A DNA stretch of 64,000 nucleotides from a virus. Its lineage: Duplodnaviria; Caudoviricetes. A program made the position numbers and the translations under genes. Below are positions 739 through 26,735 of this stretch, one piece after another; within the stretch, counting starts at the first letter, position 1; each line of letters opens with the position of its first letter. Under the pieces are notes generated by a model. The model saw only the letters and a program-made list of their open reading frames with translations, ran no database searches and was not told the DNA's origin. The stretch lies in the IMG/VR virus record IMGVR_UViG_3300028025_000089. One strand, written 5' to 3'.

Positions 739-1197
739 ATGGCAAATGGTATAACTTATGGTATTTCTTTTCCTTTTGTAGATTCTTTTACGGGAAGATA
801 TTTAGATGTGACCAATTCAACTGAAGGTGAAATAAGGTCAAGCTTAGTTCATTTAATTTTAACAAGAAAAGGATCAAGATATTTTCTACCTGATTTTGGA
901 ACAAGACTTTATGAATTTATTTTTGAACCATTAGACGGACCAACTTTTTCTGATATAGAGGCAGAGATCAAAAGTAGTGTTGGAACATACATGCCAAATT
1001 TACAAATCACTAACATATCTGTTGAACCAGGTTCTGCTGGTTTAGAAGACAAAGGTTATACGGTAAATAAAAATGGAGAAAGAGAGTTTCGTGTTACAAA
1101 CATCGGAACATTAGAACATACGGCAAAAATCAAAATAGATTATAGAATAACAGATTCGGCTTTTGAATCGAGTGATTTTATTATTATCAATATTTAA
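739..1197 (+). CDS. Baseplate wedge protein, gp25/GPW-like
   Basis: IRSSLVHLILTRKGSRYFLPDFGTRLYEFIFEP matches the gp25 family pattern; it is the first gene of the baseplate block. Confidence 0.9.
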   Translation: MANGITYGISFPFVDSFTGRYLDVTNSTEGEIRSSLVHLILTRKGSRYFLPDFGTRLYEFIFEPLDGPTFSDIEAEIKSSVGTYMPNLQITNISVEPGSAGLEDKGYTVNKNGEREFRVTNIGTLEHTAKIKIDYRITDSAFESSDFIIINI

Positions 1198-1203
1198 TAT
1201 TAT

Positions 1204-3045
1204 ATGGCAGAAAAAAAGATTTCATATACAGTAAGGGACTTTCAAGGAGTTAGAACCGAGTTAATTAATTTTACAAGAACTTATTATCCTGATTTAGTTC
1301 AAAACTTTAACGATGCCGGTATTTTCTCGGTAATGTTAGATATGAATGCTGCGGTAACAGATAATTTAAATTATCAAATTGATAGGAGTATTCAAGAAAC
1401 CGTATTACAATTTGCACAACAAAAAAATTCAGTATATAATATTGCTAGAACTTATGGTCTTAAAGTTCCGGGACAAAGACCATCGGTTGCGTTGATTGAC
1501 TTTTCAATCACGGTTCCTGCTTTTGGTGATAGAGAAGATTTAAGATATTGTGGTATTCTACGAAGAGGATCACAAGTTAATGGTGGTGGACAACCATTTG
1601 AAACCGTTTATGATATTGATTTCGCATCACCAATAAATGCCGAAGGATCTCCAAACAGAGTTAAAATACCTAACTTCGATTCAAGTGGTAAATTATTGAA
1701 TTATACAATCATTAAAAGAGAAGTTGTTGTTAATGGTATAACAAAAGTATATAAAAGAGTTATTACACCAAATGATTCTAAACCATATTTAGAATTATTT
1801 TTACCTGAAAAAAATGTTTTAGGAATTACAAGTGTATTATTAAAACCGGGAACACAATACTCCACAATACCTAATCCACAAGACTTTTTAATATTAGGTC
1901 AAGAAAGATGGTTTGAGGTTGACGCATTGGTTCAAGATAGAGTATTTGTTGAAGACCCAACTAAAACATCTGATCAACCTGGAATTAAGGTTGGAGCATA
2001 CATCACAACAACAAACAAGTTTATTTCTGAATATACACCTGAAGGTTTCTGTAAAATGACTTTTGGTGGTGGAAATATATCCGCTGATGAACAATTAAGA
2101 CAATTTGCGATTGATGGAAAAGGTTTTGATTTAAGTAGATATACTAACAATTACGCGATGGGAGCGGCTCTTCCACCAAATACAACATTATTCGTTCAGT
2201 ATAGAATTGGTGGTGGATTATCAAGTAATTTGGGTATTAACACAATTAACCAAGTTGGAACTGTGTCATTTGCCGTTAATGGACCATCTGATAGTGTAAA
2301 CCGAAGTGTAATCAATAGTTTACAATGTAATAACGTAACTGCGGCAATTGGAGGGGCAAACCCACCAACAACCGAAGATGTTAGAAACATGGTTTCATTT
2401 AACTTTGCCGCACAAAAAAGAGCGGTAACCGTAAATGACTATGATTCTATTATTAGAACAATGCCATCTCAGTTCGGAGCACCTGCTAAAGTTGCAATTA
2501 CAGAAGAAAATAATAAAATTAGAATTAAAATGTTGTCTTATGATACGACAGGAACATTAACAAATGTTGTGTCTAATACTTTAAAACAAAATGTTGCAAA
2601 TTATCTATCTAACTATAGAATGATAAATGATTACATATCAATTGAATCTGCAGATATCATTGACTTGGCGGTTACGGTAGATGTTGTATTAGATAATAGT
2701 CAAAATCAAGGAGCAATAATTTCTAAAACAATTCAAATAGTTGGAGACTTCTTTAATCCTTTAGTTAGACAATTAGGGCAAAATGTTAATATCTCTGAGC
2801 TTAGAAGATTAATACAAGCTGAAAATGGTATTGTTAGTATATCTGACATTTCATTCTTCAATCAAGTCGGAGGTCAATATTCATCAGCACAAACATCAAT
2901 GCCATATTCAGATCCTGCAACAAGACAAATCCAACCAACGGCAGATACTTTGTTCGCAACACCAACACAAATATACCAAGTAAGGTATCCAAACAAAGAT
3001 ATTAATATTAGAGTTTTGAACTTAAAATCAGTCAATTTCTCTTAG
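1204..3045 (+). CDS. Baseplate wedge subunit, T4 gp6 / baseplate J-like
   Basis: N-terminal DFQGVRTELINF..YYPD, RAVTVNDY motif in the C-terminal half, and position directly after the gp25-like gene. Confidence 0.85.
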   Translation: MAEKKISYTVRDFQGVRTELINFTRTYYPDLVQNFNDAGIFSVMLDMNAAVTDNLNYQIDRSIQETVLQFAQQKNSVYNIARTYGLKVPGQRPSVALIDFSITVPAFGDREDLRYCGILRRGSQVNGGGQPFETVYDIDFASPINAEGSPNRVKIPNFDSSGKLLNYTIIKREVVVNGITKVYKRVITPNDSKPYLELFLPEKNVLGITSVLLKPGTQYSTIPNPQDFLILGQERWFEVDALVQDRVFVEDPTKTSDQPGIKVGAYITTTNKFISEYTPEGFCKMTFGGGNISADEQLRQFAIDGKGFDLSRYTNNYAMGAALPPNTTLFVQYRIGGGLSSNLGINTINQVGTVSFAVNGPSDSVNRSVINSLQCNNVTAAIGGANPPTTEDVRNMVSFNFAAQKRAVTVNDYDSIIRTMPSQFGAPAKVAITEENNKIRIKMLSYDTTGTLTNVVSNTLKQNVANYLSNYRMINDYISIESADIIDLAVTVDVVLDNSQNQGAIISKTIQIVGDFFNPLVRQLGQNVNISELRRLIQAENGIVSISDISFFNQVGGQYSSAQTSMPYSDPATRQIQPTADTLFATPTQIYQVRYPNKDINIRVLNLKSVNFS

Positions 3046-13471: not shown

Positions 13472-16458
13472 TGGCAACAAATAAATTTACTTGTCCACCT
13501 CAAAGTAGTGCCGCTAACGAGTTCTCAAACAATTTAGTCGGAGTTCAACTTGTTACTGGTGGTGGTTTAACGCAAGCAAATTTTAATTTTACCACAGGTA
13601 TATCTGAAAAACAAAACAGGACTTTTAACATAGGGACTTTTTCAGACCCAATTAATTTAGAGTCTATTAATATAGAAAGTCAGGCTGAGGCTAATATTAT
13701 ATTAGCAAACAACTACAGGGTTTATCCGAATTATGATTTATCACAAGTTACAAATTTTACCCAATACGGGTCTTTAGTTAAAAGACTTTCAACTTCAATT
13801 ACAAAAATTATTAACTACTTTCCTGCGGGATTGGAGGTTAATTCAACAAACCCATCATTTATAACACAAGAAACCGCATTCAACATTACATTTGATTCGG
13901 TTGAAAATGACACAACATTTGAGGTTTATTTATCATCAATTCAAAACCCATTTGAAATTGATTATTCGGTTAATAGCGATATTAATATGCGTTTTAACGA
14001 AATGGATGTGTCACCATTAAGAAACATGACAAGGGAGTTCAAAAAATATGTCTTGTATGTAAATGGTAATCAATATCCTGTAAATTATTTATATCCTACT
14101 GATAGTTCATCGACAACACTAAAACTTATTGTTGATGGTGATCCGTTTAGTGGGGCGACAATATCTTTTGATTACTTAGTGATTAGACCAAGTGATTATG
14201 AAACAAATAAAGTTTTTAATTTAGATTTTGATCCTGTTGAAAACTTTTTATTAAACAGACAAATAACACCGGCTTACACCGCGCAATTTATTGTTCCAAG
14301 AGAACAAGAAGATGGGACGGTTTCGGTTACAAAAGAAACCGCGACTTGGCCAAGAGCTGGGTTATGGAATATTGATATAACATCAGTTTCGTTTGATAAT
14401 TATTTAACAAAAATTAATGACTTTGCAATTAATTTGGATCAGTATCAAACAAACATATTATCAAGGTTTTTAACGACAGGAGCATTAAAAGAATTCGATA
14501 CACCAGATCAAAGGTTTGAAAAATTACTTCAAATTTATGGAAGAAGTTTTGATGAAACAAAAACATTTATAAGTGCTTTAGGTAATATTAATAGTGTTCA
14601 CTACACGGTCAAAAATGATATACCTTCACAATTACTTAAAAATTTAGCACAGACATTAGGTTGGGTTACAAACTTTTCACCAATATCACAAGAAGAGTTA
14701 TTACAAGCGGTATTCACAACTCAACCAAATACTTTCCCTGGTCTTCAAATTGGACCAACACCTGAAGAAGTTAATTATCAATTTTATAGAAATATAATTG
14801 TAAATTCAGCATACCTTTTCAAATCAAAAGGGACAAGAAAATCTATTGAGGCTCTTTTAAGAATGATTGGAGCACCTGACGCTTTAATTGATTTTCAAGA
14901 ATATGTTTATGTTGCTGATCAACGAATTAATATGAGCGAGTTTAATCAACAATATGCTCAAATTAGTTTAGGAACTTTAACAACTCAAATACCGGTTTTA
15001 GACACCGCAGATGTATTTTCAATTCAAGGAATTCAATATACAGGATTTACAACAACATCAACAAACACAAACGTGTTGACTACAAGAAATGATTATCCTG
15101 TTGATGAATTTGGTTGTCCAAAAATGCCAACAGCGACCGAAACATATTTCTTTCAAATTGGTGGAGGTTGGTTTGAATCAACACCACAACACAGAATGCC
15201 CGAGTTTGCAATTCCAACAAATCAGGTATTCACAGGAAATAACCCAAATTATCAAACACAAATACTTCCATTTAATTATGGAGAAGAGTATCTACAAAGA
15301 TATAGACAATTTCCATATATGGATATGGGTTATGTGTTACGAAGAGTTTCAGATAATAAGAAAAGTTGGGTTGATACAAACCCAACATTAAGAACAAGTT
15401 TCGAAGGAAACTTTAACGCATACTATGAAGTTGGTGAAGAATGTTTAGTGTTGAATGTTAAAAACGTTGATATAATGTTAAACCCTGGTCAAGGATTATC
15501 ATATGACGTGTGGTATATGTCTAATCAGTATAATTTCCCAATACCAGAACAAGGTTTGTTTTATACACCACCATCACCTTGTAGTATTCCTAACCCATAT
15601 CCTAAATTAGGTGGGGTGGATTGGACAACAATAGTTCCAAAACCAAAACAAAAAACTTTCTTTGAGTTTGCGCAGACCTTTTGGAGAAATATGATTAACA
15701 CCCGAAATCGTCAATTTATTACTGATGGAAAAACTGGGGGTTACCCAACATTACAATCAATTTATTGGAGATATTTAGAATCACAAAAATTGGCAGGAGT
15801 TCCAAACAATAACTATACATACCAAACGATGATTGATTTTGTTAATGGTATGGGTGATTATTGGATTCAGTTTATAGAACAAATGGTTCCGGCAACCACA
15901 ATTTGGAACACAGGGGTTAGATTAGAAAATTCAATATTTCATAGACAAAAGTTTGTATGGAGAAGACAAGAAGGTTGTAAAATACTTCCTGTTCCTTGTA
16001 AACCATGTAGTCTTACAACACAACTTTATGTTTACGATTGTCCTGTTCAAAGTGTAACATGCGGGTTATATCCTTGGACGACAGATCCAAACACAACATC
16101 ATTTGGTGTGGTATTAAACCAAACACTCCAAGACTATTTTACATCACAAGGTATTAACCCTGGTCAGTGTCAATTGAATTCAACAGTTTCAAATTGGTTT
16201 GTTGATATAAGAGTTAATGGATTACTTATTACTCAATATGGTTTCTTTACAGGAATCGGAACTTCAGGTTATCCATCAAGTTCACAATGGTTACAAGGAT
16301 TGCAAGAAGCTTTGGATGGTTTACTAACAAGTGGTTATAGTTATAATATTGATGAAGATACAAATGAATTAGTGGTCTTTAATAATAATTGTTTACCAAA
16401 CTTTGATGACTTTGAATTGAATGTTGGAATAAACTTTGAAACTTACTGTAACGCATAA
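13471..16458 (+). CDS. Baseplate/tail protein with a wedge-type KGT motif
   Basis: YLFKSKGTRKSIEALLRMIG resembles the KGT motif of P2 gpI / T4 gp7-like wedge proteins; Cys-rich C-terminus. Confidence 0.6.
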   Translation: MATNKFTCPPQSSAANEFSNNLVGVQLVTGGGLTQANFNFTTGISEKQNRTFNIGTFSDPINLESINIESQAEANIILANNYRVYPNYDLSQVTNFTQYGSLVKRLSTSITKIINYFPAGLEVNSTNPSFITQETAFNITFDSVENDTTFEVYLSSIQNPFEIDYSVNSDINMRFNEMDVSPLRNMTREFKKYVLYVNGNQYPVNYLYPTDSSSTTLKLIVDGDPFSGATISFDYLVIRPSDYETNKVFNLDFDPVENFLLNRQITPAYTAQFIVPREQEDGTVSVTKETATWPRAGLWNIDITSVSFDNYLTKINDFAINLDQYQTNILSRFLTTGALKEFDTPDQRFEKLLQIYGRSFDETKTFISALGNINSVHYTVKNDIPSQLLKNLAQTLGWVTNFSPISQEELLQAVFTTQPNTFPGLQIGPTPEEVNYQFYRNIIVNSAYLFKSKGTRKSIEALLRMIGAPDALIDFQEYVYVADQRINMSEFNQQYAQISLGTLTTQIPVLDTADVFSIQGIQYTGFTTTSTNTNVLTTRNDYPVDEFGCPKMPTATETYFFQIGGGWFESTPQHRMPEFAIPTNQVFTGNNPNYQTQILPFNYGEEYLQRYRQFPYMDMGYVLRRVSDNKKSWVDTNPTLRTSFEGNFNAYYEVGEECLVLNVKNVDIMLNPGQGLSYDVWYMSNQYNFPIPEQGLFYTPPSPCSIPNPYPKLGGVDWTTIVPKPKQKTFFEFAQTFWRNMINTRNRQFITDGKTGGYPTLQSIYWRYLESQKLAGVPNNNYTYQTMIDFVNGMGDYWIQFIEQMVPATTIWNTGVRLENSIFHRQKFVWRRQEGCKILPVPCKPCSLTTQLYVYDCPVQSVTCGLYPWTTDPNTTSFGVVLNQTLQDYFTSQGINPGQCQLNSTVSNWFVDIRVNGLLITQYGFFTGIGTSGYPSSSQWLQGLQEALDGLLTSGYSYNIDEDTNELVVFNNNCLPNFDDFELNVGINFETYCNA

Positions 16459-18644
16459 TGAGTATAACAATTTATAATTATAGTGTAACTGGTGATTGTA
16501 GTAATACGGGGTCAGGAGCATTTTCATTTGACATTACAGGAACAACACCTCCTTTTGCCGTAACGTGTATTAGTTCAGGTTGTAGTTTACCAACCTCAGC
16601 AACCACAACTTCTTATGGTGTTTCAGGAATTACCGCTGACACATATTTTTTACAAGTCGTTGATGGATCGTCAAATAATTACGTTCAGGCTGTTTATATA
16701 TCATCAGGAACAACCGCAACGATTGATTCTGAAAATACAACGTGTGGGTTGAGTAATGGATCTATTACAGGATATACTTCAGGTGTTTATAATATTGCAA
16801 CATTTAGTTTGTATGATGGACTTAACAATTTAGTCACCTCATCACAAGTTTCGAATAATTATTATAATTTCACATCTCTTTCTGCTGGAACATATTATAT
16901 AGTTGCTGATGATGGTGGTGGTTGCACAGGAATCACAGCCTCAGTAATTGTTACACCATCAACAGGTTTTACTTTTGGTGGTTATGTTGTTGATGACGCA
17001 AGTTGTAACGGAGTTGGAAGTGGAAAAATATTTCTTACAGGTTTAACATTACCTTCATCCGCATATACAATAAATTGGTCACCAAATGTTAATGGACAAA
17101 CAGGAACAACTGTTACAGGTTTAACGGGGGGAACTTATATAGTCACAGTAACAGATCCTATTAATTGTTCTAATACACAATCATTTAATGTTCAAGCCGT
17201 TGATCCTTTGGGTTCAGGTGGTTTTATTACTATATCACAACCAACTTGTTTTGCTAATGACGGTGAAGTTGAATTTATTGTGACAGGAGGAACTCCTCCA
17301 TATTTCTTTAGCGGTTCGTCAGGTCAAGTTGATGTTACGTTTGCATCATCAGTAACATTTACTGGTTTATCATCGGGTATTTATTCGTTTTTAGTTACAG
17401 ATGCAGGACTATGCACCATATACGATTCGGTTTCAATGTTGACACCAAACTCATTCACTACGGTTGCGGTTAACACAACACCATCTTTTTGTTCTCAAAA
17501 CTCGGGATCTATTCAGGTTATAGTTGATAATGGATTGAGCACAGAACCAAGTTTATTAATTTCAATATCAGGAACAAGCGGAACACAACAAGTTGGAAGT
17601 TTAGGAAACCCAACTCAAACATTCAACGGACTTCCAAATGGGACTTATTTAATCACCGTTCAATCAACAAGTTGCACTTATACCGCAACAACTAATATAA
17701 CTTCTGTTGATTTATTTACGGTTACAGCATCAACAACAGGAACAACTTGTGGTGGTAATAATGGTATTTTAGATGTTGTAGTTTCAACAGGAGGAACATT
17801 ACCATACATATTTACTCTTACGGGACCAACTTATAGTCCTGTAACCACAACAACTTTTTTATCTACATTTACAAATCTTAAATATGGTAATTATACCTTG
17901 ACAGTTCAAGATTCAGGATCACCGAGTTGTAGTCAAACCTATAATGTTTATATTGATGATAGTCAAAATGTATTTTTTAATTTAATACCATCACAACCAA
18001 TTACAGGAAATGATGGGGCAATTACCACATATATTCTATCGGGAGTTCCGACCTTCAATCTAACATGGAGTAGTAATGTTAATGGTCAAACAGGATCAAC
18101 TGTGACAGGACTAACGGCAGGGACTTATACTTTGACGGTTGTTGATAGTGAAGATTGTTCCTTGACAAAATCAATTACATTAACGGGAACTAAAAAATAT
18201 AGTGATTACAGATACTATAATATTTGTGATAATACATTTGCAGACACGGGAACGGTAACCAAAAGAAGTATGAGAGCAATGTATTTGGAAGGTTTTTCTG
18301 ATCTTACAAGTGGGGATACAAATTGTATTATAAACGAAGCAACGTTTTCGATATATGCACAAGTTGGATCACAATCCGCTCAAACACAATTCTACACTTC
18401 AAGTGGATCAACCGATTACCCAACAGATGTTTTGTGGGCTCAAACGATTGTTGAAACCTTAGATTCATTTGTAGGTATTTCAGGAACTACCGTCGACATA
18501 GTATCAAATAGAATAACAATAACCACAACATGTGAAGACATACCAAAAGGGTGTGAAATAGTCCCTTTGAATCCATTACAAGATAATGAGATTATTGTTA
18601 AGTTAGTTATTGATTATGATATATCTTGTGTAAGCTGTAGTTAA
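16458..18644 (+). CDS. Cys/Thr-rich fibre or adhesin-like protein with SprB-like repeats
   Basis: Repeats such as TCFANDGEVEFIVTGGTPPY, TCGGNNGILDVVVSTGGTLPY and TGLTAGTYTLTVVD. Confidence 0.7.
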   Translation: MSITIYNYSVTGDCSNTGSGAFSFDITGTTPPFAVTCISSGCSLPTSATTTSYGVSGITADTYFLQVVDGSSNNYVQAVYISSGTTATIDSENTTCGLSNGSITGYTSGVYNIATFSLYDGLNNLVTSSQVSNNYYNFTSLSAGTYYIVADDGGGCTGITASVIVTPSTGFTFGGYVVDDASCNGVGSGKIFLTGLTLPSSAYTINWSPNVNGQTGTTVTGLTGGTYIVTVTDPINCSNTQSFNVQAVDPLGSGGFITISQPTCFANDGEVEFIVTGGTPPYFFSGSSGQVDVTFASSVTFTGLSSGIYSFLVTDAGLCTIYDSVSMLTPNSFTTVAVNTTPSFCSQNSGSIQVIVDNGLSTEPSLLISISGTSGTQQVGSLGNPTQTFNGLPNGTYLITVQSTSCTYTATTNITSVDLFTVTASTTGTTCGGNNGILDVVVSTGGTLPYIFTLTGPTYSPVTTTTFLSTFTNLKYGNYTLTVQDSGSPSCSQTYNVYIDDSQNVFFNLIPSQPITGNDGAITTYILSGVPTFNLTWSSNVNGQTGSTVTGLTAGTYTLTVVDSEDCSLTKSITLTGTKKYSDYRYYNICDNTFADTGTVTKRSMRAMYLEGFSDLTSGDTNCIINEATFSIYAQVGSQSAQTQFYTSSGSTDYPTDVLWAQTIVETLDSFVGISGTTVDIVSNRITITTTCEDIPKGCEIVPLNPLQDNEIIVKLVIDYDISCVSCS

Positions 18645-18647
18645 TTT

Positions 18648-18872
18648 ATGTCAAACCAAATAACAATAACTTCTGTTACAGGATTAACAACCCCATTTAG
18701 TGGATACTGTTGTGACGTATATGGAAATCAATGTTCATTTGTTGGAGTGATTAGTAGTTTACCAACAACAATAACTTTACCAAATCAGTTTAACACCGCT
18801 CCTGCGATAGGTTTAAAACTTAATGATGGTGCTGGATGTGAAACTTTAGAAACAATTTACTGTTCTTCATAA
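18648..18872 (+). CDS. Small Cys-containing protein, paralog of 26737..26955
   Basis: MSNQITITSVTGLTTPF.. aligns with MPTQITISSLSGLSPF..; both end in GC/EC-x-x-x-ET. Confidence 0.7.
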   Translation: MSNQITITSVTGLTTPFSGYCCDVYGNQCSFVGVISSLPTTITLPNQFNTAPAIGLKLNDGAGCETLETIYCSS

Positions 18873-18906: not shown

Positions 18907-19887
18907 ATGGAAAAAATTTTATTTGTCACCGCACAACCTGACGTGCCATATTTTATTTGGCAAATCAAACTATACGTTCATAATTTCATAGAGAAAGGAA
19001 TTAACCCAAATCAAATCCACGTTATTTTTAGTTTACAAAATGAAAATAATGAACCGTCAAGAGAATCTTTACAGTTGAAAGATCTTGGGATTAATGTTCA
19101 TCACTTTGTTGATGAAAGGGTTAAAAAACATTATATACCATCAATAAAACCATTTTTAATTTCAAAGTGGATTCAAAAAAATCCTAAATACGGTGAGTTA
19201 TTTTTTCTTCACGATTCAGATATTATTTTTAACGAACTACCGAGTTTTGATCGGTTATTGAATGATGAGGTTTGTTACATGTCAGATACGATTGGATATA
19301 TTGGATATAACTACATTATGGATTGTTGTAAAAGATATGAAAGTCAAAACCCAACTTCTGAGAAAGGACAACTCATTTCTGAAATGGCAAATGTTGTTGG
19401 AGTTGATGTTGACACAATTAAACAAAATCAAAAAAATTCAGGAGGAGGTCAATACCTTTTTAAAAACACAAATTGTGAATTATGGGATAAAATGTATAAA
19501 GACTCAATAAAATTATACGATCAAATGTTAGATTATCAAAAACGTTTTCCGATCAATCCAGGTCAAATACAATTTTGGACCGCAGAAATGTGGGCAGTGT
19601 TGTGGAATCTTTGGTTATATGAATACGAAACAAAAATAATTTCAGATCTTGATTTTTCATGGGCTACTGACACCATTGAGATTTATAATTCAAAAAACAT
19701 ATTACACATGGCAGGTGTCACAGATGATCTAAAAACTACAAAATTCTATAAAGGTGATTATATTAATATTGACCCCATTTTGAAATTAAAGGAGGATGAA
19801 AACTTTTTTAATTACATAGATAAAAACAGTTCGACAATTAAATACATCGAAAACATGAAATCATATATAAAAAAATACGAAAATTGA
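18907..19887 (+). CDS. GT-A glycosyltransferase resembling plant SERGT1 (GT96) / HPAT (GT95) protein O-glycosyltransferases
   Basis: Collinear motifs YFIWQ..VHNF, YIPSIKP..KWI, LHDSD (DxD), GGG, WTAEMW and ILH match the recalled SERGT1 motifs YFDWQ..MHSF, YPAINKP..YWL, ILDAD, VGG, WISEMY and LMH. Confidence 0.7.
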   Translation: MEKILFVTAQPDVPYFIWQIKLYVHNFIEKGINPNQIHVIFSLQNENNEPSRESLQLKDLGINVHHFVDERVKKHYIPSIKPFLISKWIQKNPKYGELFFLHDSDIIFNELPSFDRLLNDEVCYMSDTIGYIGYNYIMDCCKRYESQNPTSEKGQLISEMANVVGVDVDTIKQNQKNSGGGQYLFKNTNCELWDKMYKDSIKLYDQMLDYQKRFPINPGQIQFWTAEMWAVLWNLWLYEYETKIISDLDFSWATDTIEIYNSKNILHMAGVTDDLKTTKFYKGDYINIDPILKLKEDENFFNYIDKNSSTIKYIENMKSYIKKYEN

Positions 19888-22003: not shown

Positions 22004-24523
22004 ATGGCCTACATAATTAAAAATACATCAGGTTTGGTTAACACCCGAGTTACTGACACGGGAAGACAAAGATTGTCTGAAGGTAGATTCAATATCACAT
22101 ATTTTGCTATTGGTGATAGTGAAATATCTTATAATCAATTACCCAACACTTATAACCAATCAAACACCGTTGTATTGGAACCTCAATTTAATGCTCAAAA
22201 TAGTTCAGGCGTTCCTGAATCAAATAGACAATATATTAAATATCCTTATTTGGTTGATGAAGGTCAAACAAACCTTTATGGTATTCCATTTATGGATTCG
22301 CAAATTGAATCTGTTTATAATAGAGCTGCAATGAGAGGATTTTTTACAGGAAACACAACAGCGTCAACTGTAAATTGGAAGGCTCTTGTTAATAATTCAT
22401 ATGTTGTGACACCAAATTATGTTGTTAATATGTCAACGTTAAATGGGTCAAATGAAATCAACGTATATCGATTAGATTGTAATAGTCAAAATAATAATAC
22501 ACCACAAGTTGGTGATTTTATTACAATATATTATGATGGGTTTGCAAAAAATGATTGTTCTTGTTCTAATTTCCCGACACCAACACCATCGGCATCGGTA
22601 GGACAAACACCAACACCTACACCAACTCCATCGGCAACATTATCAAACCCTTGTGCGTCACCAACACCGACACCAAGCCCAACTCAAACACCTTGTATAT
22701 CACCTACACCAAGTGCTCAATGTCCTTTACCACCACCACCTGATTGTTTGAAAAATGTTAATTCTTGTTTTTCAATATTAACATATAGAATCGTTGCGGT
22801 ATGTAATGATAAATTAACATTAGATAGACCAACACCCGACTTTACCAATCTTTCAAGTGATTGTATTGCAAGAACATTAATATATCCACCACAAATGGTT
22901 CCTTTGTATGATAGTTTTACACCTGAACCGCATTGGGCTCAAAGTGTTATTGATTTTGAATCAGTTTGTGATACGGATCAATTTGATGTTAAAATTTGGA
23001 ACATGAATATTCCGTGGACTGAAAGTCCGGCAGGTTTATTGCCATCACAATACCAAGACTATACCAAATTTGGATCAATTAATTATATCGGTCAAAAAGA
23101 ATACTTTGGTTATACAACAAGTGCTCAAACATCTACAGACGATGTTTATTATTATAACTCTTTTGGTGAAAAACAAGTTGTGACACCGCAAGATCAAAAG
23201 GCTATTGCAATTATTCATTATACTAATCAAACAATAGATTTCTTTTATGGTGAAAAATTTGCTTTAGAACCATATGACACACAAAACCCTGAAAACACAC
23301 AAGGTCAAGCAAGAAACTTTAAGTTACACATGCCAACAATAATGTGGCATAAAAACCCTGAATGTTGTTTTGGTCAAACATTCTATGTTGATCCTCCAGG
23401 GTTCGAAGGTAAAAACTTGTTTACAGTTCAATATACAAAATCAAATATTTCGTCCAACATGAATAAACCTGGATTGAGATATTATAATTTATGGGACACA
23501 TTTGCACAACCAAATGGACTTCCAAGTAGAATTGGAAAAGTATATCCTGATTCTAAAATGATAATAATAGATGACGAAGAATTGGTTGCTGCACTTTCAT
23601 ATAAGTCAAATCGAAATTGGACTTTACCGGCACCTCAAGTTTCGTTATTAACACCAAACACTTGTGGTGTTTCTAATACTACAGGAGTTTTAACTGGTGG
23701 CAGTGAAACAATGTGGGTGACTTATAGATTAACAAACACTAATTACTTTACTAATTCATTACATTGTAATTACTATGTGAACGTAGTTGGAACTGAAAAT
23801 GTTTGTTCACCTGAAACACCAAAAAATGTTGCGGTTAGATTCGGAGGAGATTTCCCTTGTTTAGTTCAACCAGGTTTTACACCAACAACCACAACCACAA
23901 CAATTCCTTTTACAACAACCACAACTACAAGTCCATTAACAACAACTACAACTACAAGTCCATTAATTACAACCACAACAACTATTTGTCCAACTTGTGT
24001 TGTTCCTGCAGGTTTTTACGCGACTGAATTCCAAGTATTAGCTCAAAGAGTTCCTACGGGACAAAGACCAACCCCTGAAAGTTGGAAGATGATTGATTTT
24101 ACACAACAAATAAGTAGTTTATTTATTAATGGATATGTAACACAAGAATCATTAACGGCAACAACATTTACAATTACTGCTGAAAATTATGACAGCGCTC
24201 CATTCTACAATCTAAATGATTATGTTACACTTGTTCCTAATGGTGCGACAGGTCAACAATTAAACTTTGGTGATGAATATTATTTCTATGGAAATTTAGA
24301 GACAGATATTCAAGCAACGATCTACGAAATGAAATATAAGATAAACTTGAATTCTTCTGAATTTTTGGTGTCTCAAAACCCAACATGGACAAAAGGGACT
24401 CAATCTTATGTTACGGAAATTGCGTTATTAGATGAAAATGAAGATATTCTTGTTATGTCAAAATTACAATCACCTGTTTTACGACAAGGAATACAACAAT
24501 ACGTGGTAAAATTAGATTTCTAA
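22004..24523 (+). CDS. Tail collar/fibre-attachment-like virion protein with Pro-Thr and Thr linkers
   Basis: N-terminal TDTGRQRL..ITYFAIGDSEI and C-terminal VTEIALLDENEDILVMSKL resemble fibre-attachment domains; PTPTPS and TTTTT tracts. Confidence 0.65.
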   Translation: MAYIIKNTSGLVNTRVTDTGRQRLSEGRFNITYFAIGDSEISYNQLPNTYNQSNTVVLEPQFNAQNSSGVPESNRQYIKYPYLVDEGQTNLYGIPFMDSQIESVYNRAAMRGFFTGNTTASTVNWKALVNNSYVVTPNYVVNMSTLNGSNEINVYRLDCNSQNNNTPQVGDFITIYYDGFAKNDCSCSNFPTPTPSASVGQTPTPTPTPSATLSNPCASPTPTPSPTQTPCISPTPSAQCPLPPPPDCLKNVNSCFSILTYRIVAVCNDKLTLDRPTPDFTNLSSDCIARTLIYPPQMVPLYDSFTPEPHWAQSVIDFESVCDTDQFDVKIWNMNIPWTESPAGLLPSQYQDYTKFGSINYIGQKEYFGYTTSAQTSTDDVYYYNSFGEKQVVTPQDQKAIAIIHYTNQTIDFFYGEKFALEPYDTQNPENTQGQARNFKLHMPTIMWHKNPECCFGQTFYVDPPGFEGKNLFTVQYTKSNISSNMNKPGLRYYNLWDTFAQPNGLPSRIGKVYPDSKMIIIDDEELVAALSYKSNRNWTLPAPQVSLLTPNTCGVSNTTGVLTGGSETMWVTYRLTNTNYFTNSLHCNYYVNVVGTENVCSPETPKNVAVRFGGDFPCLVQPGFTPTTTTTTIPFTTTTTTSPLTTTTTTSPLITTTTTICPTCVVPAGFYATEFQVLAQRVPTGQRPTPESWKMIDFTQQISSLFINGYVTQESLTATTFTITAENYDSAPFYNLNDYVTLVPNGATGQQLNFGDEYYFYGNLETDIQATIYEMKYKINLNSSEFLVSQNPTWTKGTQSYVTEIALLDENEDILVMSKLQSPVLRQGIQQYVVKLDF
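22574..22742 (+). repeat. Pro-Thr/Ser dipeptide repeat tract (coding)
   Basis: PTPTPSASVGQTPTPTPTPSATLSNPCASPTPTPSPTQTPCISPTPSAQCPLPPPP. Confidence 0.9.
23881..23985 (+). repeat. Thr-run tandem repeat (coding)
   Basis: PTTTTTTIPFTTTTTTSPLTTTTTTSPLITTTTT; the DNA unit acaactacaagtccattaa occurs twice. Confidence 0.9.
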
Positions 24524-25189: not shown

Positions 25190-25214
25190 TATTGTATAAT
25201 ATATTGATAATTTG

Positions 25215-25246
25215 AAATATCGTCTTTTTAGACGATATTTTTTTTT
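25215..25246. terminator. Bidirectional intrinsic terminator between convergent genes
   Basis: AAATATCGTCT-TTTT-AGACGATATTT 11-bp stem followed by a T run on the + strand. Confidence 0.85.
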
Positions 25247-26735
25247 AACAAGAAAATCCTGTATTTGTTATTAGAGTGTTTTGAGGGTTGTTGGATACTG
25301 GTGTTGTTGATGAACACAAATAAATTGAAGTATTTGGATTCATAGATATTGAAGAAGGACCATTTTCACAACTAAAATAAGATATTGATATTTTAGATGG
25401 ACTGTCATTAACAATCGAATATTCAAACTGAACACATGGTGTAGGACTTGGAGTCGGTGTTGGTGTTTGAGTTGGAGTTTGTGTTGGAGTTTGTGTTAAT
25501 TCAGGAACGCAGTTTAAACAAGCGCCATCTGTAGTTGATCCTATTTCTGTTAATAACTGAATTGTATCCACACCACTTATATTTTCAAATAACCCATCAT
25601 AAATAACACAATATCCTTGTCCGTTAATTATTGCGTTATATACATAACCTTCTTTTGGTGATGTAGTTCCTGAAACCAAAACCAAATCTGATGTAAAATA
25701 TTGAATACCTGTAAAGCAATCTCTGAATTTTTTACTATTTGCACATTGTATAATTTCAGAAAATGTATTAAATATAACTTCACCCGAAAAATTGCAAGGT
25801 CTATCAACTTGTGGTGTTGGAGTTGGTGTCGGTGTAAACGAAGGCGTTGGAGTTGGTGATATACCTAATTTTGAAACTACCATTGATACACCACCACAAA
25901 TTGCCGAACTTGTCGGTGTCATTGTTGGTGTGGGGGTTGGTGTTTTTGGTGGTGTTGTAGAAGGTGTTGGTGGTATATAACAATCAAAAACCGCTTCCAA
26001 ATCTAACGTAGAACAAGGATTAATTGTTGTTGTAGTTGTTGTGCATGGACCAAAATAAAGAACACTATCATCTAAATCAGGACAAGAGGATGCGCTACCA
26101 TATGGTCCGAATTGATCACAAGGATCACCAAGATTTTGAGCTAAACACCATCTTGTTTCACCTGTAGAGTAATAAATCACAAAACTTGTAGATTCACCTG
26201 TATAATATGATTGACCATCAAAAGTTCCTGCAATTTCATATGTGTCGTCGTATGTTGTATCATTTTGAATACAAAATGTTCCTGTGCAAGTGCAGGCAGA
26301 TATACCTAATATTTCACCAGCACTATCAACATCATAAACATCAACACCGTCAGAATAGTAAGAAATTAATGCTGTAGTTGTGCAAGCAGAATCTGTGTAT
26401 ACAATAGACCCAATGTTTAAATCAGAACCATACAAGATATAATCTAATGGTGATAAACAAGAAAGTTCAGGATCTGAAGCCGATGAAAAATTTCCTAAAA
26501 AATTACAAGAACAACCTGAAACTCCGGTAATTTCTCCCGAACCATTTGTTGAATATAAATTAGACCCGTTACTCAAATATATTGATGCTAAAGGCATCGT
26601 GCAACCTGAATCAATATACATCTCTTCACCAATTACCAAACTATCTCCGTATACCGTAGTTGTAAGTGCAGATAAACACAAATCCAAACTAGCGGATGTG
26701 TCAAGAGCAAATAAACCTAAATCATTACAAGCCAT
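25245..26735 (-). CDS. Cys-rich fibre-like protein with internal repeats and Pro-Thr/Thr linkers
   Basis: Two similar N-terminal units (..LCLS..TVYG..L.IG...Y.DSGCT..), plus PTPTPTPTP and TTTTT tracts. Confidence 0.7.
   Translation of the reverse strand: MACNDLGLFALDTSASLDLCLSALTTTVYGDSLVIGEEMYIDSGCTMPLASIYLSNGSNLYSTNGSGEITGVSGCSCNFLGNFSSASDPELSCLSPLDYILYGSDLNIGSIVYTDSACTTTALISYYSDGVDVYDVDSAGEILGISACTCTGTFCIQNDTTYDDTYEIAGTFDGQSYYTGESTSFVIYYSTGETRWCLAQNLGDPCDQFGPYGSASSCPDLDDSVLYFGPCTTTTTTINPCSTLDLEAVFDCYIPPTPSTTPPKTPTPTPTMTPTSSAICGGVSMVVSKLGISPTPTPSFTPTPTPTPQVDRPCNFSGEVIFNTFSEIIQCANSKKFRDCFTGIQYFTSDLVLVSGTTSPKEGYVYNAIINGQGYCVIYDGLFENISGVDTIQLLTEIGSTTDGACLNCVPELTQTPTQTPTQTPTPTPSPTPCVQFEYSIVNDSPSKISISYFSCENGPSSISMNPNTSIYLCSSTTPVSNNPQNTLITNTGFSC

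Follow-up and report, generated by a model that had tools for sequence, protein, structure and literature searches.

The gene described here, which lies in a 64-kb stretch of the tailed-phage record IMGVR_UViG_3300028025_000089 (the whole stretch analysed, hereafter the window; AT-rich, about 31% G+C), seems to equip a phage to glycosylate its own particles. Its 326-aa product can confidently be assigned, from its structure model, to the GT-A glycosyltransferases. The best reading of sequences and models, and one that we regard as fairly probable, is that this enzyme O-glycosylates Thr-rich tracts of the phage's own virion proteins. A preliminary description of the DNA had proposed an O-glycosyltransferase resembling the plant enzymes HPAT and SERGT1 (peptidyl-serine alpha-galactosyltransferase) that acts on Ser/Thr/Pro-rich tracts of the virion, and this proposal is supported by the ranking of folds, by profile-profile homology, and by the co-occurrence of enzyme and tracts. 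The extensin-type acceptor that it envisaged holds in part: Thr/Pro-rich tracts are present, and the comparative signal lies in runs of poly-Thr, not in extensin-type Ser/hydroxyproline (Hyp) motifs. With less assurance, we also lean toward a wider view, in which the HPAT/SERGT1-related family phrog_4417 and a poly-Thr tag form a widespread O-glycosylation system for capsids, tail tubes, and fibres. Its carriers would infect Bacillota and Bacteroidota and would range in size from temperate siphophages of 35 kb to freshwater jumbo phages of about 290 kb. The enzyme would share ancestry with the glycosyltransferase families GT95 and GT96 and with glycosyltransferases of ribosomally synthesized and posttranslationally modified peptides (RiPPs), and the tag would be a short, portable, encodable signal.

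The association between enzyme and tag is seen most directly in cultured phages. A tblastn search of 50,697 phage records with the enzyme found full-length homologues (24 to 37% identity) in 77 GenBank records, whose hosts are Enterococcus, Lactobacillus, Lacticaseibacillus, Staphylococcus, Lactococcus, Clostridium, Arcanobacterium, and Chryseobacterium. In the siphophages examined, the homologue is located directly 3' of the major tail protein gene or just downstream of the major capsid protein gene, and the proteins encoded upstream of it end in Thr-only tails. The tail protein of phage 1706 ends in ...TTTTTTTTTTHHD, the capsid and tail proteins of iLp84 both end in ...TTTTTTTSK, and the capsid protein of 4995_1 ends in ...TTTTTTKPTTTTTTTQA. 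Open reading frames (ORFs) with runs of at least 5 Thr occur no more than 6 kb from the homologue in 12 of 14 representative GenBank phages (about 11 lineages), and most of them are C-terminal tags on the directly upstream major capsid or tail protein. In the Chryseobacterium phage, which among the cultured relatives is closest as judged by host, the two genes just upstream of the homologue contain internal T6 repeats.

Within each of two families of structural proteins, a locus has either both tag and enzyme or neither. The bIL285 tail protein family, sampled at 80 IMG/VR loci, divides into 14 loci with both and 66 with neither, and no locus has the tag only or the enzyme only; among the tag-less proteins is one, 98% identical, in which only TTT is left of the tail. 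For the Enterococcus 4995_1 capsid family (also 80 IMG/VR loci), the corresponding counts are 70 with both, 7 with neither, and none with one alone, three further tagged loci whose contig ends at the capsid gene having been set apart. The seven tag-less capsid proteins are 84 to 85% identical to tagged ones, and at five of these loci at least 2.6 kb of downstream sequence is available. Counts within one protein family are not phylogenetically independent; the tag-enzyme pattern recurs across many unrelated virion gene sets. The co-occurrence with Thr-rich tracts, whose absence would have counted against the preliminary description, is found across unrelated phages.

The same association extends to other data sets. 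Among GTDB genomes, a poly-Thr ORF lies near 25 of 35 single-domain enzyme loci, in Bacillota prophages and Bacteroidota phage-like contigs, compared to 2 of 45 two- or multidomain loci. When 55 IMG/VR loci were chosen solely by an in-frame run of at least 7 Thr, the enzyme was found in 4, each time adjoining the tagged ORF. At the genomic level, the family has the pairing expected of a virion-glycosylation system of the mycobacteriophage type: an enzyme gene accompanied by virion proteins with a dedicated putative acceptor segment. Four phage-like contigs labelled Bacteroidota or Gammaproteobacteria (L379, L390, L412, and L435) have poly-Thr tracts internal to proteins of 356 to 842 aa. These proteins end in a short Cys-Pro motif (...GTCP, ...SDCP, ...SSCP, and ...IPCP), which fibre-like proteins may have in common as a C-terminal module.

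The enzyme matches phrog_4417 of PHROGs, annotated "unknown function" (E 3.7e-68; residues 6 to 319 on profile positions 3 to 290 of 293). Proteins of this type form 1,323 clusters at 90% identity and 833 representatives at 50% identity. The 326-aa protein has no match in Pfam, HPAT and GT8 models included, and searches of the PDB by sequence and by profile returned chance matches only, with no related solved structure. An alignment of 65 diverse homologues served both for conservation and for an AlphaFold2 model of high predicted quality (predicted local distance difference test [pLDDT] score, 97.6; predicted template modelling score, 0.94). As the first beta-strand of the model begins at residue 5 and no N-terminal helix fit for a membrane anchor is seen, the enzyme looks soluble. 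Residues W18, Y76, D103, D105, Y131, Y136, G180, Q182, W224, M228, W229, F250, H267, G270, and K282 are invariant in the 65 homologues. The DxD motif lies within FFLHDSDIIF, and H267 is a likely metal ligand by analogy with GT-A enzymes in general.

A structure search of the PDB with the model gave 416 matches at E ≤ 0.001, and among the best 50 listed almost all are GT-A glycosyltransferases. The nearest solved structures by Z score are glycogenin (15.5), LgtC (14.7), the Skp1 alpha-galactosyltransferase (14.3), UGGT (14.2), and GlyE (13.8), the last a glycosyltransferase of serine-rich-repeat adhesins. The nearest solved enzymes, on which Foldseek agrees, are thus Mn-dependent retaining GT-A enzymes of the GT8 type, several of them protein-acting. 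A retaining (alpha-linking) mechanism is, by analogy with them, probable for the phage enzyme. Glycogenin, GlyE, the Skp1 enzyme, and UGGT have, like it, a DxD motif (Mn binding in their case) and a distal His; the GT8-type structures superpose on the model with a root mean square deviation of 3.3 to 3.9 over 211 to 242 residues, at 7 to 14% identity.

Two other roles can be weighed against these results. Large phages often encode DNA glycosyltransferases that modify hydroxymethylated bases and so evade restriction, and several DNA methyltransferases are encoded in the window. Such a role is nevertheless very improbable here, as the structural matches listed include no DNA glycosyltransferase, the family is frequent in temperate siphophages of 35 to 40 kb, where it sits between capsid, tail-tube, and tape-measure genes, and the enzyme covaries with protein tags. 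No base hydroxymethylase appears in the Pfam tally of the window, outside which most of the genome of about 290 kb lies. A noncatalytic structural or assembly protein that retains the GT-A fold might seem to be indicated by gp49 of Enterococcus phage phiFL2B (L002:6995-7903), an enzyme homologue labelled "major tail protein" in GenBank. However, the true tail protein of phiFL2B is the product of the adjacent gene, gp48, a 218-aa protein with a poly-Thr tag at its end. In sequences that share only 28 to 53% identity with the window's protein, the DxD, His, Lys, and other pocket residues do not vary, and fusions of homologues to other active-type glycosyltransferase domains (Pfam "GlcNAc" PF11397, O-FucT, GT6, GT2, Glyco_transf_7C, and GT25) argue for an enzyme. 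We give the structural explanation equally little credence.

Predicted structures place the enzyme closest to proteins that glycosylate peptides in plants. Arabidopsis SERGT1 heads the matches in AlphaFold/Swiss-Prot (E 1e-10; template modelling [TM] score, 0.62), and seven HPAT-family proteins (RDN1/2, PLENTY, NOD3, and HPAT1-3) have TM scores of 0.55 to 0.63. SERGT1 and the HPAT family together take ranks 1 to 7 and 9, Chlamydomonas SGT1 is at rank 11, and GT8 galactinol synthases lie behind (TM 0.46 to 0.48); the GT8-type enzymes overall reach TM 0.41 to 0.48. HPAT-domain proteins also come first in afdb_clusters and the ESM Atlas once the enzyme's own family is set aside, and structure-library TM scores are 0.73 for an algal ShK-HPAT protein and 0.72 for a bacterial PqqD-HPAT protein. 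SERGT1 and the HPATs are thus the best structural neighbours outside the family, as the preliminary description had anticipated, and the polysaccharide or DNA glycosyltransferase that it had feared as best match did not appear.

At the sequence level, the Pfam HPAT model matched 1 of the 65 homologues, at E 0.38, and had no match in the nearest viral record, in four carrier phage genomes, or in 401 Pseudomonadota genomes. Because the model itself misses the enzyme family, a profile-profile comparison was made with true HPAT proteins, namely, 28 PF23452-carrying homologues of a 377-aa HPAT-PqqD protein from Myxococcales. With hhalign, the alignment of the 65 homologues matched these proteins with a probability of 82.5% and an E value of 9.9e-6 over 247 columns, a result that is moderate and not decisive. 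The motifs YF.WQ, Y.PS.KP, DxD, W..(D/E)M(W/F), I.H, and K..Y are in register. The ordered motifs that had been likened to those of SERGT1 do, therefore, coalign with Pfam-HPAT proteins, these being the reference and not SERGT1's own sequence. Identity between the enzyme and HPAT/SERGT1 proteins is 12 to 14%. Judging from the models, the enzyme is a distant relative of the HPAT/SERGT1 clade, with a fold closer to that clade than to any other characterised family. By sequence, it is below the curated threshold (Pfam HPAT) for membership in GT95/GT96, and so of the proposed assignment the homology and the closest fold stand, whereas formal membership does not.

Bacterial relatives occur in what look, from gene content, like peptide-modification clusters. 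Two-domain homologues of about 580 aa are encoded by Bacteroidota in RiPP-like clusters on metagenomic contigs (L007:3312-11325 and L009:1-7931) and are common in chromosomes of Chitinophaga, Pedobacter, Mucilaginibacter, and Sphingobacterium. The clusters hold double-glycine-leader peptides, a radical-SAM enzyme, a LanC-like protein, and a C39-VKOR-thioredoxin protein. The leader peptides are Cys rich (L007:6263-6556 and L009:5-211), and the L009 precursor ends in a Thr/Pro-rich tail (...KTTTAAPAPTNPTPSVE). To judge from these genes, the clusters look like an undescribed pathway for glycosylated peptides. The 377-aa protein mentioned above, from a Myxococcales metagenome-assembled genome (MAG; L457:1006-3567, minus strand), combines an HPAT domain above the Pfam threshold with a C-terminal PqqD domain, and more than 100 of its homologues carry the same two Pfam domains. 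Just upstream of its gene is encoded a 464-aa protein that we take, by the look of its sequence, to be a 2-oxoglutarate oxygenase of the prolyl-4-hydroxylase type. The pair is a candidate bacterial system for hydroxylating and then glycosylating peptide proline. The RiPP-like clusters and the PqqD-fused HPAT relatives together would therefore place the whole clade among peptide- or protein-modifying glycosyltransferases.

This kinship also bears on the possibility that the enzyme modifies an envelope glycopolymer or lipid-linked precursor of the host (teichoic acid, cell wall polysaccharide, or O-antigen), blocking superinfection or changing the receptor in the manner of seroconverting prophage glycosyltransferases. 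Phage GT-A enzymes often act in this way, and some solved neighbours of the model act on lipopolysaccharide or polysaccharide (LgtC and WbbM). Yet the nearest relatives are peptide-modifying enzymes, and the model has no N-terminal helix as a possible membrane anchor. In at least 10 lineages, strictly lytic phages included, the gene occurs within head and tail morphogenesis modules rather than close to genes for integration, immunity, or lysis, and its gains and losses go with those of the poly-Thr tags carried by capsid and tail proteins. Among the 47 other ORFs of the window, the Pfam tally includes no flippase-type or other glycosylation partner. We therefore consider modification of the host envelope unlikely, and glycosylation of virion proteins remains our preferred reading.

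All ORFs of the window were scanned for runs of at least 5 Thr or long S/T/P-rich tracts. In plausible genes, such runs or tracts were found only in those for an 839-aa and a 496-aa protein, 2.1 and 5.4 kb downstream of the enzyme gene (Table 1). The PTPTPSP and TTTTT tracts ascribed earlier to nearby genes are present in these two; the 728-aa SprB-repeat protein has a single TTTT only. In 67 orthologues of the 839-aa protein (46 to 87% identical), both tracts are positionally kept between conserved cysteines, with lengths of 18 to 115 aa for the first and 11 to 56 aa for the second, and at the first position PT-type and poly-T-type tracts interchange. The Thr codons of the tracts are mixed (ACA, ACC, and ACT). 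In lake metagenome contigs, the poly-Thr tract of this protein shows small indels, including 3-base ones (window positions 23904 to 23933), which suggests tract-length polymorphism in natural populations. An AlphaFold2 model of the 839-aa protein built with 32 orthologues was too poor for a fold search (pLDDT, 46.9), and an ESM Atlas feature search with the protein gave no usable match.

Related phages keep this arrangement. In 80 related IMG/VR loci whose enzyme is 60 to 80% identical, the gene order is the same, and S/T/P or poly-T tracts are found nearby in 77. Of the three loci that lack tracts, two break off no more than 1.6 kb beyond the enzyme gene on its downstream side, and one stops at that gene. 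Most of the 80 loci also have, at the same relative position, a minus-strand orthologue of the 496-aa protein with S/T/P tracts. A 5.3-kb contig binned as "Candidatus Woesearchaeota archaeon" (CAYGYN010000024.1; L377) encodes a 66%-identical enzyme beside a poly-Thr ORF; its most likely origin is a phage of the window's lineage, with misbinning into an archaeal MAG.

Several observations weigh against glycosylation of the virion tracts. Throughout the family, the case rests on computation. The Pfam HPAT model (gathering score, 23.9 bits) finds nothing in the enzyme at E ≤ 1, so that kinship to HPAT is remote. The 80 related loci are one lineage and not independent. Because the tracts of the window are internal linkers of fibre-like proteins encoded 2 to 5 kb away, and not tags at the C terminus of a capsid or tube protein encoded next to the enzyme, the Firmicutes phages provide an analogy only, and it is from gene position only that the 839-aa and 496-aa proteins may be taken as virion components. 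No nearby poly-Thr ORF is found at 10 of the 35 GTDB single-domain loci, some of which are on very short contigs. Two Herelleviridae, SAC12B and LP65 (Lactobacillus), carry a homologue without any run of at least 4 Thr within 6 kb, so their acceptors, if any, would lie elsewhere in the 130-kb genomes. In both, the homologue is near recA, sigma factor, and lysis genes.

These points lend some weight to a further alternative, in which the acceptor is another protein or a small molecule (a host factor or a nonvirion phage protein) and the Thr/Pro tracts are plain flexible linkers that co-occur with the enzyme for some other reason. The proposed acceptor is deduced from co-occurrence only, the window's tracts do not adjoin the enzyme gene, and the two Herelleviridae have no tract within 6 kb. 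It is hard to explain otherwise, however, why tag and enzyme are lost together within capsid and tail families that are 84 to 98% identical. The tags sit at exposed C termini of the most abundant surface proteins; as they are Thr only, every tag residue offers a hydroxyl. We regard this alternative as unlikely, if slightly less so than modification of the envelope, and we retain glycosylation of virion tracts as the best reading.

The gene context in the window is consistent with expression of the enzyme alongside structural genes (Table 1). The preliminary description had placed a 326-aa GT-A protein with an LHDSD motif between two fibre-like genes; the ORF is real, and both large neighbours have SprB repeats. 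The baseplate wedge genes mark the region, from sequence, as a contractile-tail module, and the codirectional array of large genes downstream of them includes the enzyme gene, which begins 34 nt after the codirectional 74-aa ORF and ends 16 nt before the gene for the 690-aa SprB-repeat protein. Between positions 16000 and 27500, the hairpin listed in Table 1 is the sole long-stem terminator-like site in an intergenic gap. The idea that the enzyme is made before its substrates finds no support, as the gene is packed in the same array and this hairpin is the only clear terminator-like site. Nor does a scan for sigma-70 promoters say anything on timing: it gave 79 sites versus 61.5 expected, which is near background and uninformative in AT-rich DNA. 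In one lake metatranscriptome, short contigs of relatives cover flanking genes and none covers the enzyme gene, although such contigs cannot show transcription level or starts. RiPP-type neighbours (a leader peptide and maturation or export genes) are absent around the enzyme gene, the neighbours being large SprB-repeat proteins.

Table 1. Features of the window around the glycosyltransferase gene, with the matches on which they are based
Feature	Position (nt unless stated)	Strand	Remarks
Baseplate wedge genes (gp25-like and gp6-like; T4 type)	739..3045	+	phrog_261/43, E 1e-16; phrog_219, E 1e-20
SprB-repeat fibre-like protein, 728 aa, upstream of enzyme gene	16458..18644	+	Pfam SprB (E 6e-6) and Y_Y_Y
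ORF of 74 aa, directly 5' of enzyme gene	18648..18872	+	No family match in Pfam and PHROGs
Glycosyltransferase gene	18907..19887	+	ATG start; predicted soluble GT-A fold; phrog_4417 member
L101-H102-D103-S104-D105 codons (DxD; metal and nucleotide-sugar motif)	19207..19221	+	D103/D105 align with invariant D96/D98 of Pfam-HPAT proteins
H267 codon (ILHMAG), likely third metal ligand	19705..19707	+	Aligns with invariant His of HPAT-family alignment
SprB-repeat protein, 690 aa	19904..21976	+	Pfam SprB, E 1.1e-11; phrog_26672 "virion structural protein", E 5.6e-6
Conserved protein, 839 aa, best candidate acceptor	22004..24523	+	Two Thr-rich tracts, kept in orthologues
Cys-flanked PT tract of 839-aa protein	aa 189-247, about nt 22568-22744	+	Tract scan
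Poly-Thr tract of 839-aa protein	aa 626-660, about nt 23879-23983	+	Tract scan
Terminator-like hairpin, 12 pairs and T run	25214..25241	.	Between plus-strand array and convergent minus-strand gene
Cys-rich protein, 496 aa, second candidate acceptor	25245..26735	-	T6 run and three long PT tracts (tract scan)

At 11-637, directly 5' of the wedge genes, the window encodes the C-terminal portion of the large subunit of a ribonucleotide reductase (phrog_84, E 7e-23). Pfam matches in 27284-63682 fit expectations for a jumbo phage and include glutamine synthetase, full DnaJ, a sigma-70-type factor, thioredoxin, DUF932, and amidase, together with three matches of DNA methyltransferase type and an SbcC/Mre11-type pair. 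The Pfam tally took in 47 ORFs besides the enzyme, with families not mapped to individual ORFs, and it includes no second glycosyltransferase or sugar-nucleotide gene. With 20 kb of the window as query, megablast found no nucleotide relative among GenBank phages. The nearest viral record, of 57.7 kb, is rated 20% complete, from which a genome size of about 290 kb follows. Near-identical DNA is present in freshwater and lake metagenomes from about ten studies.

Based on these features, we infer a catalytic activity, an acceptor, a donor sugar, and a benefit for the system. The enzyme would be produced during infection along with the products of the tail and fibre genes and would use a host nucleotide sugar and a divalent metal, bound through the DxD and His267. 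A donor from the host is likely because the Pfam tally shows no other glycosyltransferase or sugar-nucleotide gene. Sugar would be transferred, in the cytoplasm and before or during assembly, to the hydroxyls of Thr (possibly also Ser) in Thr-rich and Pro/Thr-rich tracts of structural proteins. In this phage, the candidate acceptors are the 839-aa and 496-aa proteins, to which the SprB-repeat fibres may perhaps be added. The finished particle would then have mucin-like glycosylated linkers, which may be stiff or protease resistant or may shield the particle from host or immune recognition.

The proposed system overlaps partially with known ones. Plant and algal HPAT1-3, RDN1/2, PLENTY, and NOD3 (GT95; PF23452) and SERGT1/SGT1 (GT96) have in common with the phage enzyme the GT-A fold and the ordered motifs. 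For the plant enzymes, a peptide hydroxyl acceptor in a Pro/Ser/Thr-rich low-complexity tract is established, whereas for the phage enzyme it is deduced; the former transfer L-arabinofuranose to Hyp or galactose to Ser in the Ser-Hyp motifs of extensin-type repeats, and the latter would act on poly-Thr. The plant enzymes are Golgi membrane proteins, in contrast to the phage enzyme, whose model lacks an N-terminal helix as an anchor. The PqqD-fused HPAT proteins are both structural neighbours and profile-profile homologues of the enzyme. Unlike RiPP-type glycosyltransferases, the window enzyme is a single domain without PqqD, in a virion cluster without a precursor peptide. SunS, the enzyme of a glycocin, belongs to GT2 and is likened by analogy only. 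A64R of PBCV-1 is also a virus-encoded cytoplasmic GT-A enzyme that acts on a major capsid protein; it builds N-linked atypical glycans. It comes from a eukaryotic virus, unlike the phage enzyme, and its similarity to the model (Z 11.1) is much weaker than that of the GT8 and HPAT types.

To our knowledge, and by the account of papers that cite Freeman et al. 2023, virion glycosylation in tailed phages has been shown experimentally in mycobacteriophages only. There, as summarised in PMC12619734, glycosyltransferases encoded by the phage attach sugars to the C termini of its own capsid and tail-tube subunits; the work on Che8, Corndog, and Myrna is that of Freeman et al. 2023 (Cell Host Microbe 31:1216), as cited in PMC12619734 and PMC13313380. 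The Firmicutes phage relatives, with C-terminal tags on capsid and tail proteins, are the genomic counterpart of that system. They differ in that the hosts are Bacillota and Bacteroidota rather than Mycobacterium, the tag is a simple poly-Thr run, the tracts of the jumbo phage are internal, and the system is known here from genes alone. Because no Mycobacterium phage is among the 77 tblastn records, the enzyme family differs, at BLAST sensitivity, from that of the mycobacteriophages. What is new, then, is the enzyme clade, the very simple tag, the host phyla, and the internal mucin-like linkers proposed for a jumbo phage. Full-text searches of the literature brought up no publication that deals with phrog_4417, with phage proteins tagged by poly-Thr, or with HPAT-like enzymes of phages.

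If this reading is true, glycosylation would be a common property of virions among phages that infect lactic acid bacteria, enterococci, staphylococci, and clostridia, as well as among the abundant jumbo phages of fresh water. This would bear on phage therapy, through immune recognition and clearance, on dairy phage biology, on the sensing of capsid and tail proteins by host defences, and on the stability of particles in the environment. The enzyme and its tag would provide a minimal pair for the production of O-glycoproteins in bacteria. The glycosyltransferases of plant cell wall proteins would, moreover, be linked to a prokaryotic and viral clade of peptide glycosyltransferases.

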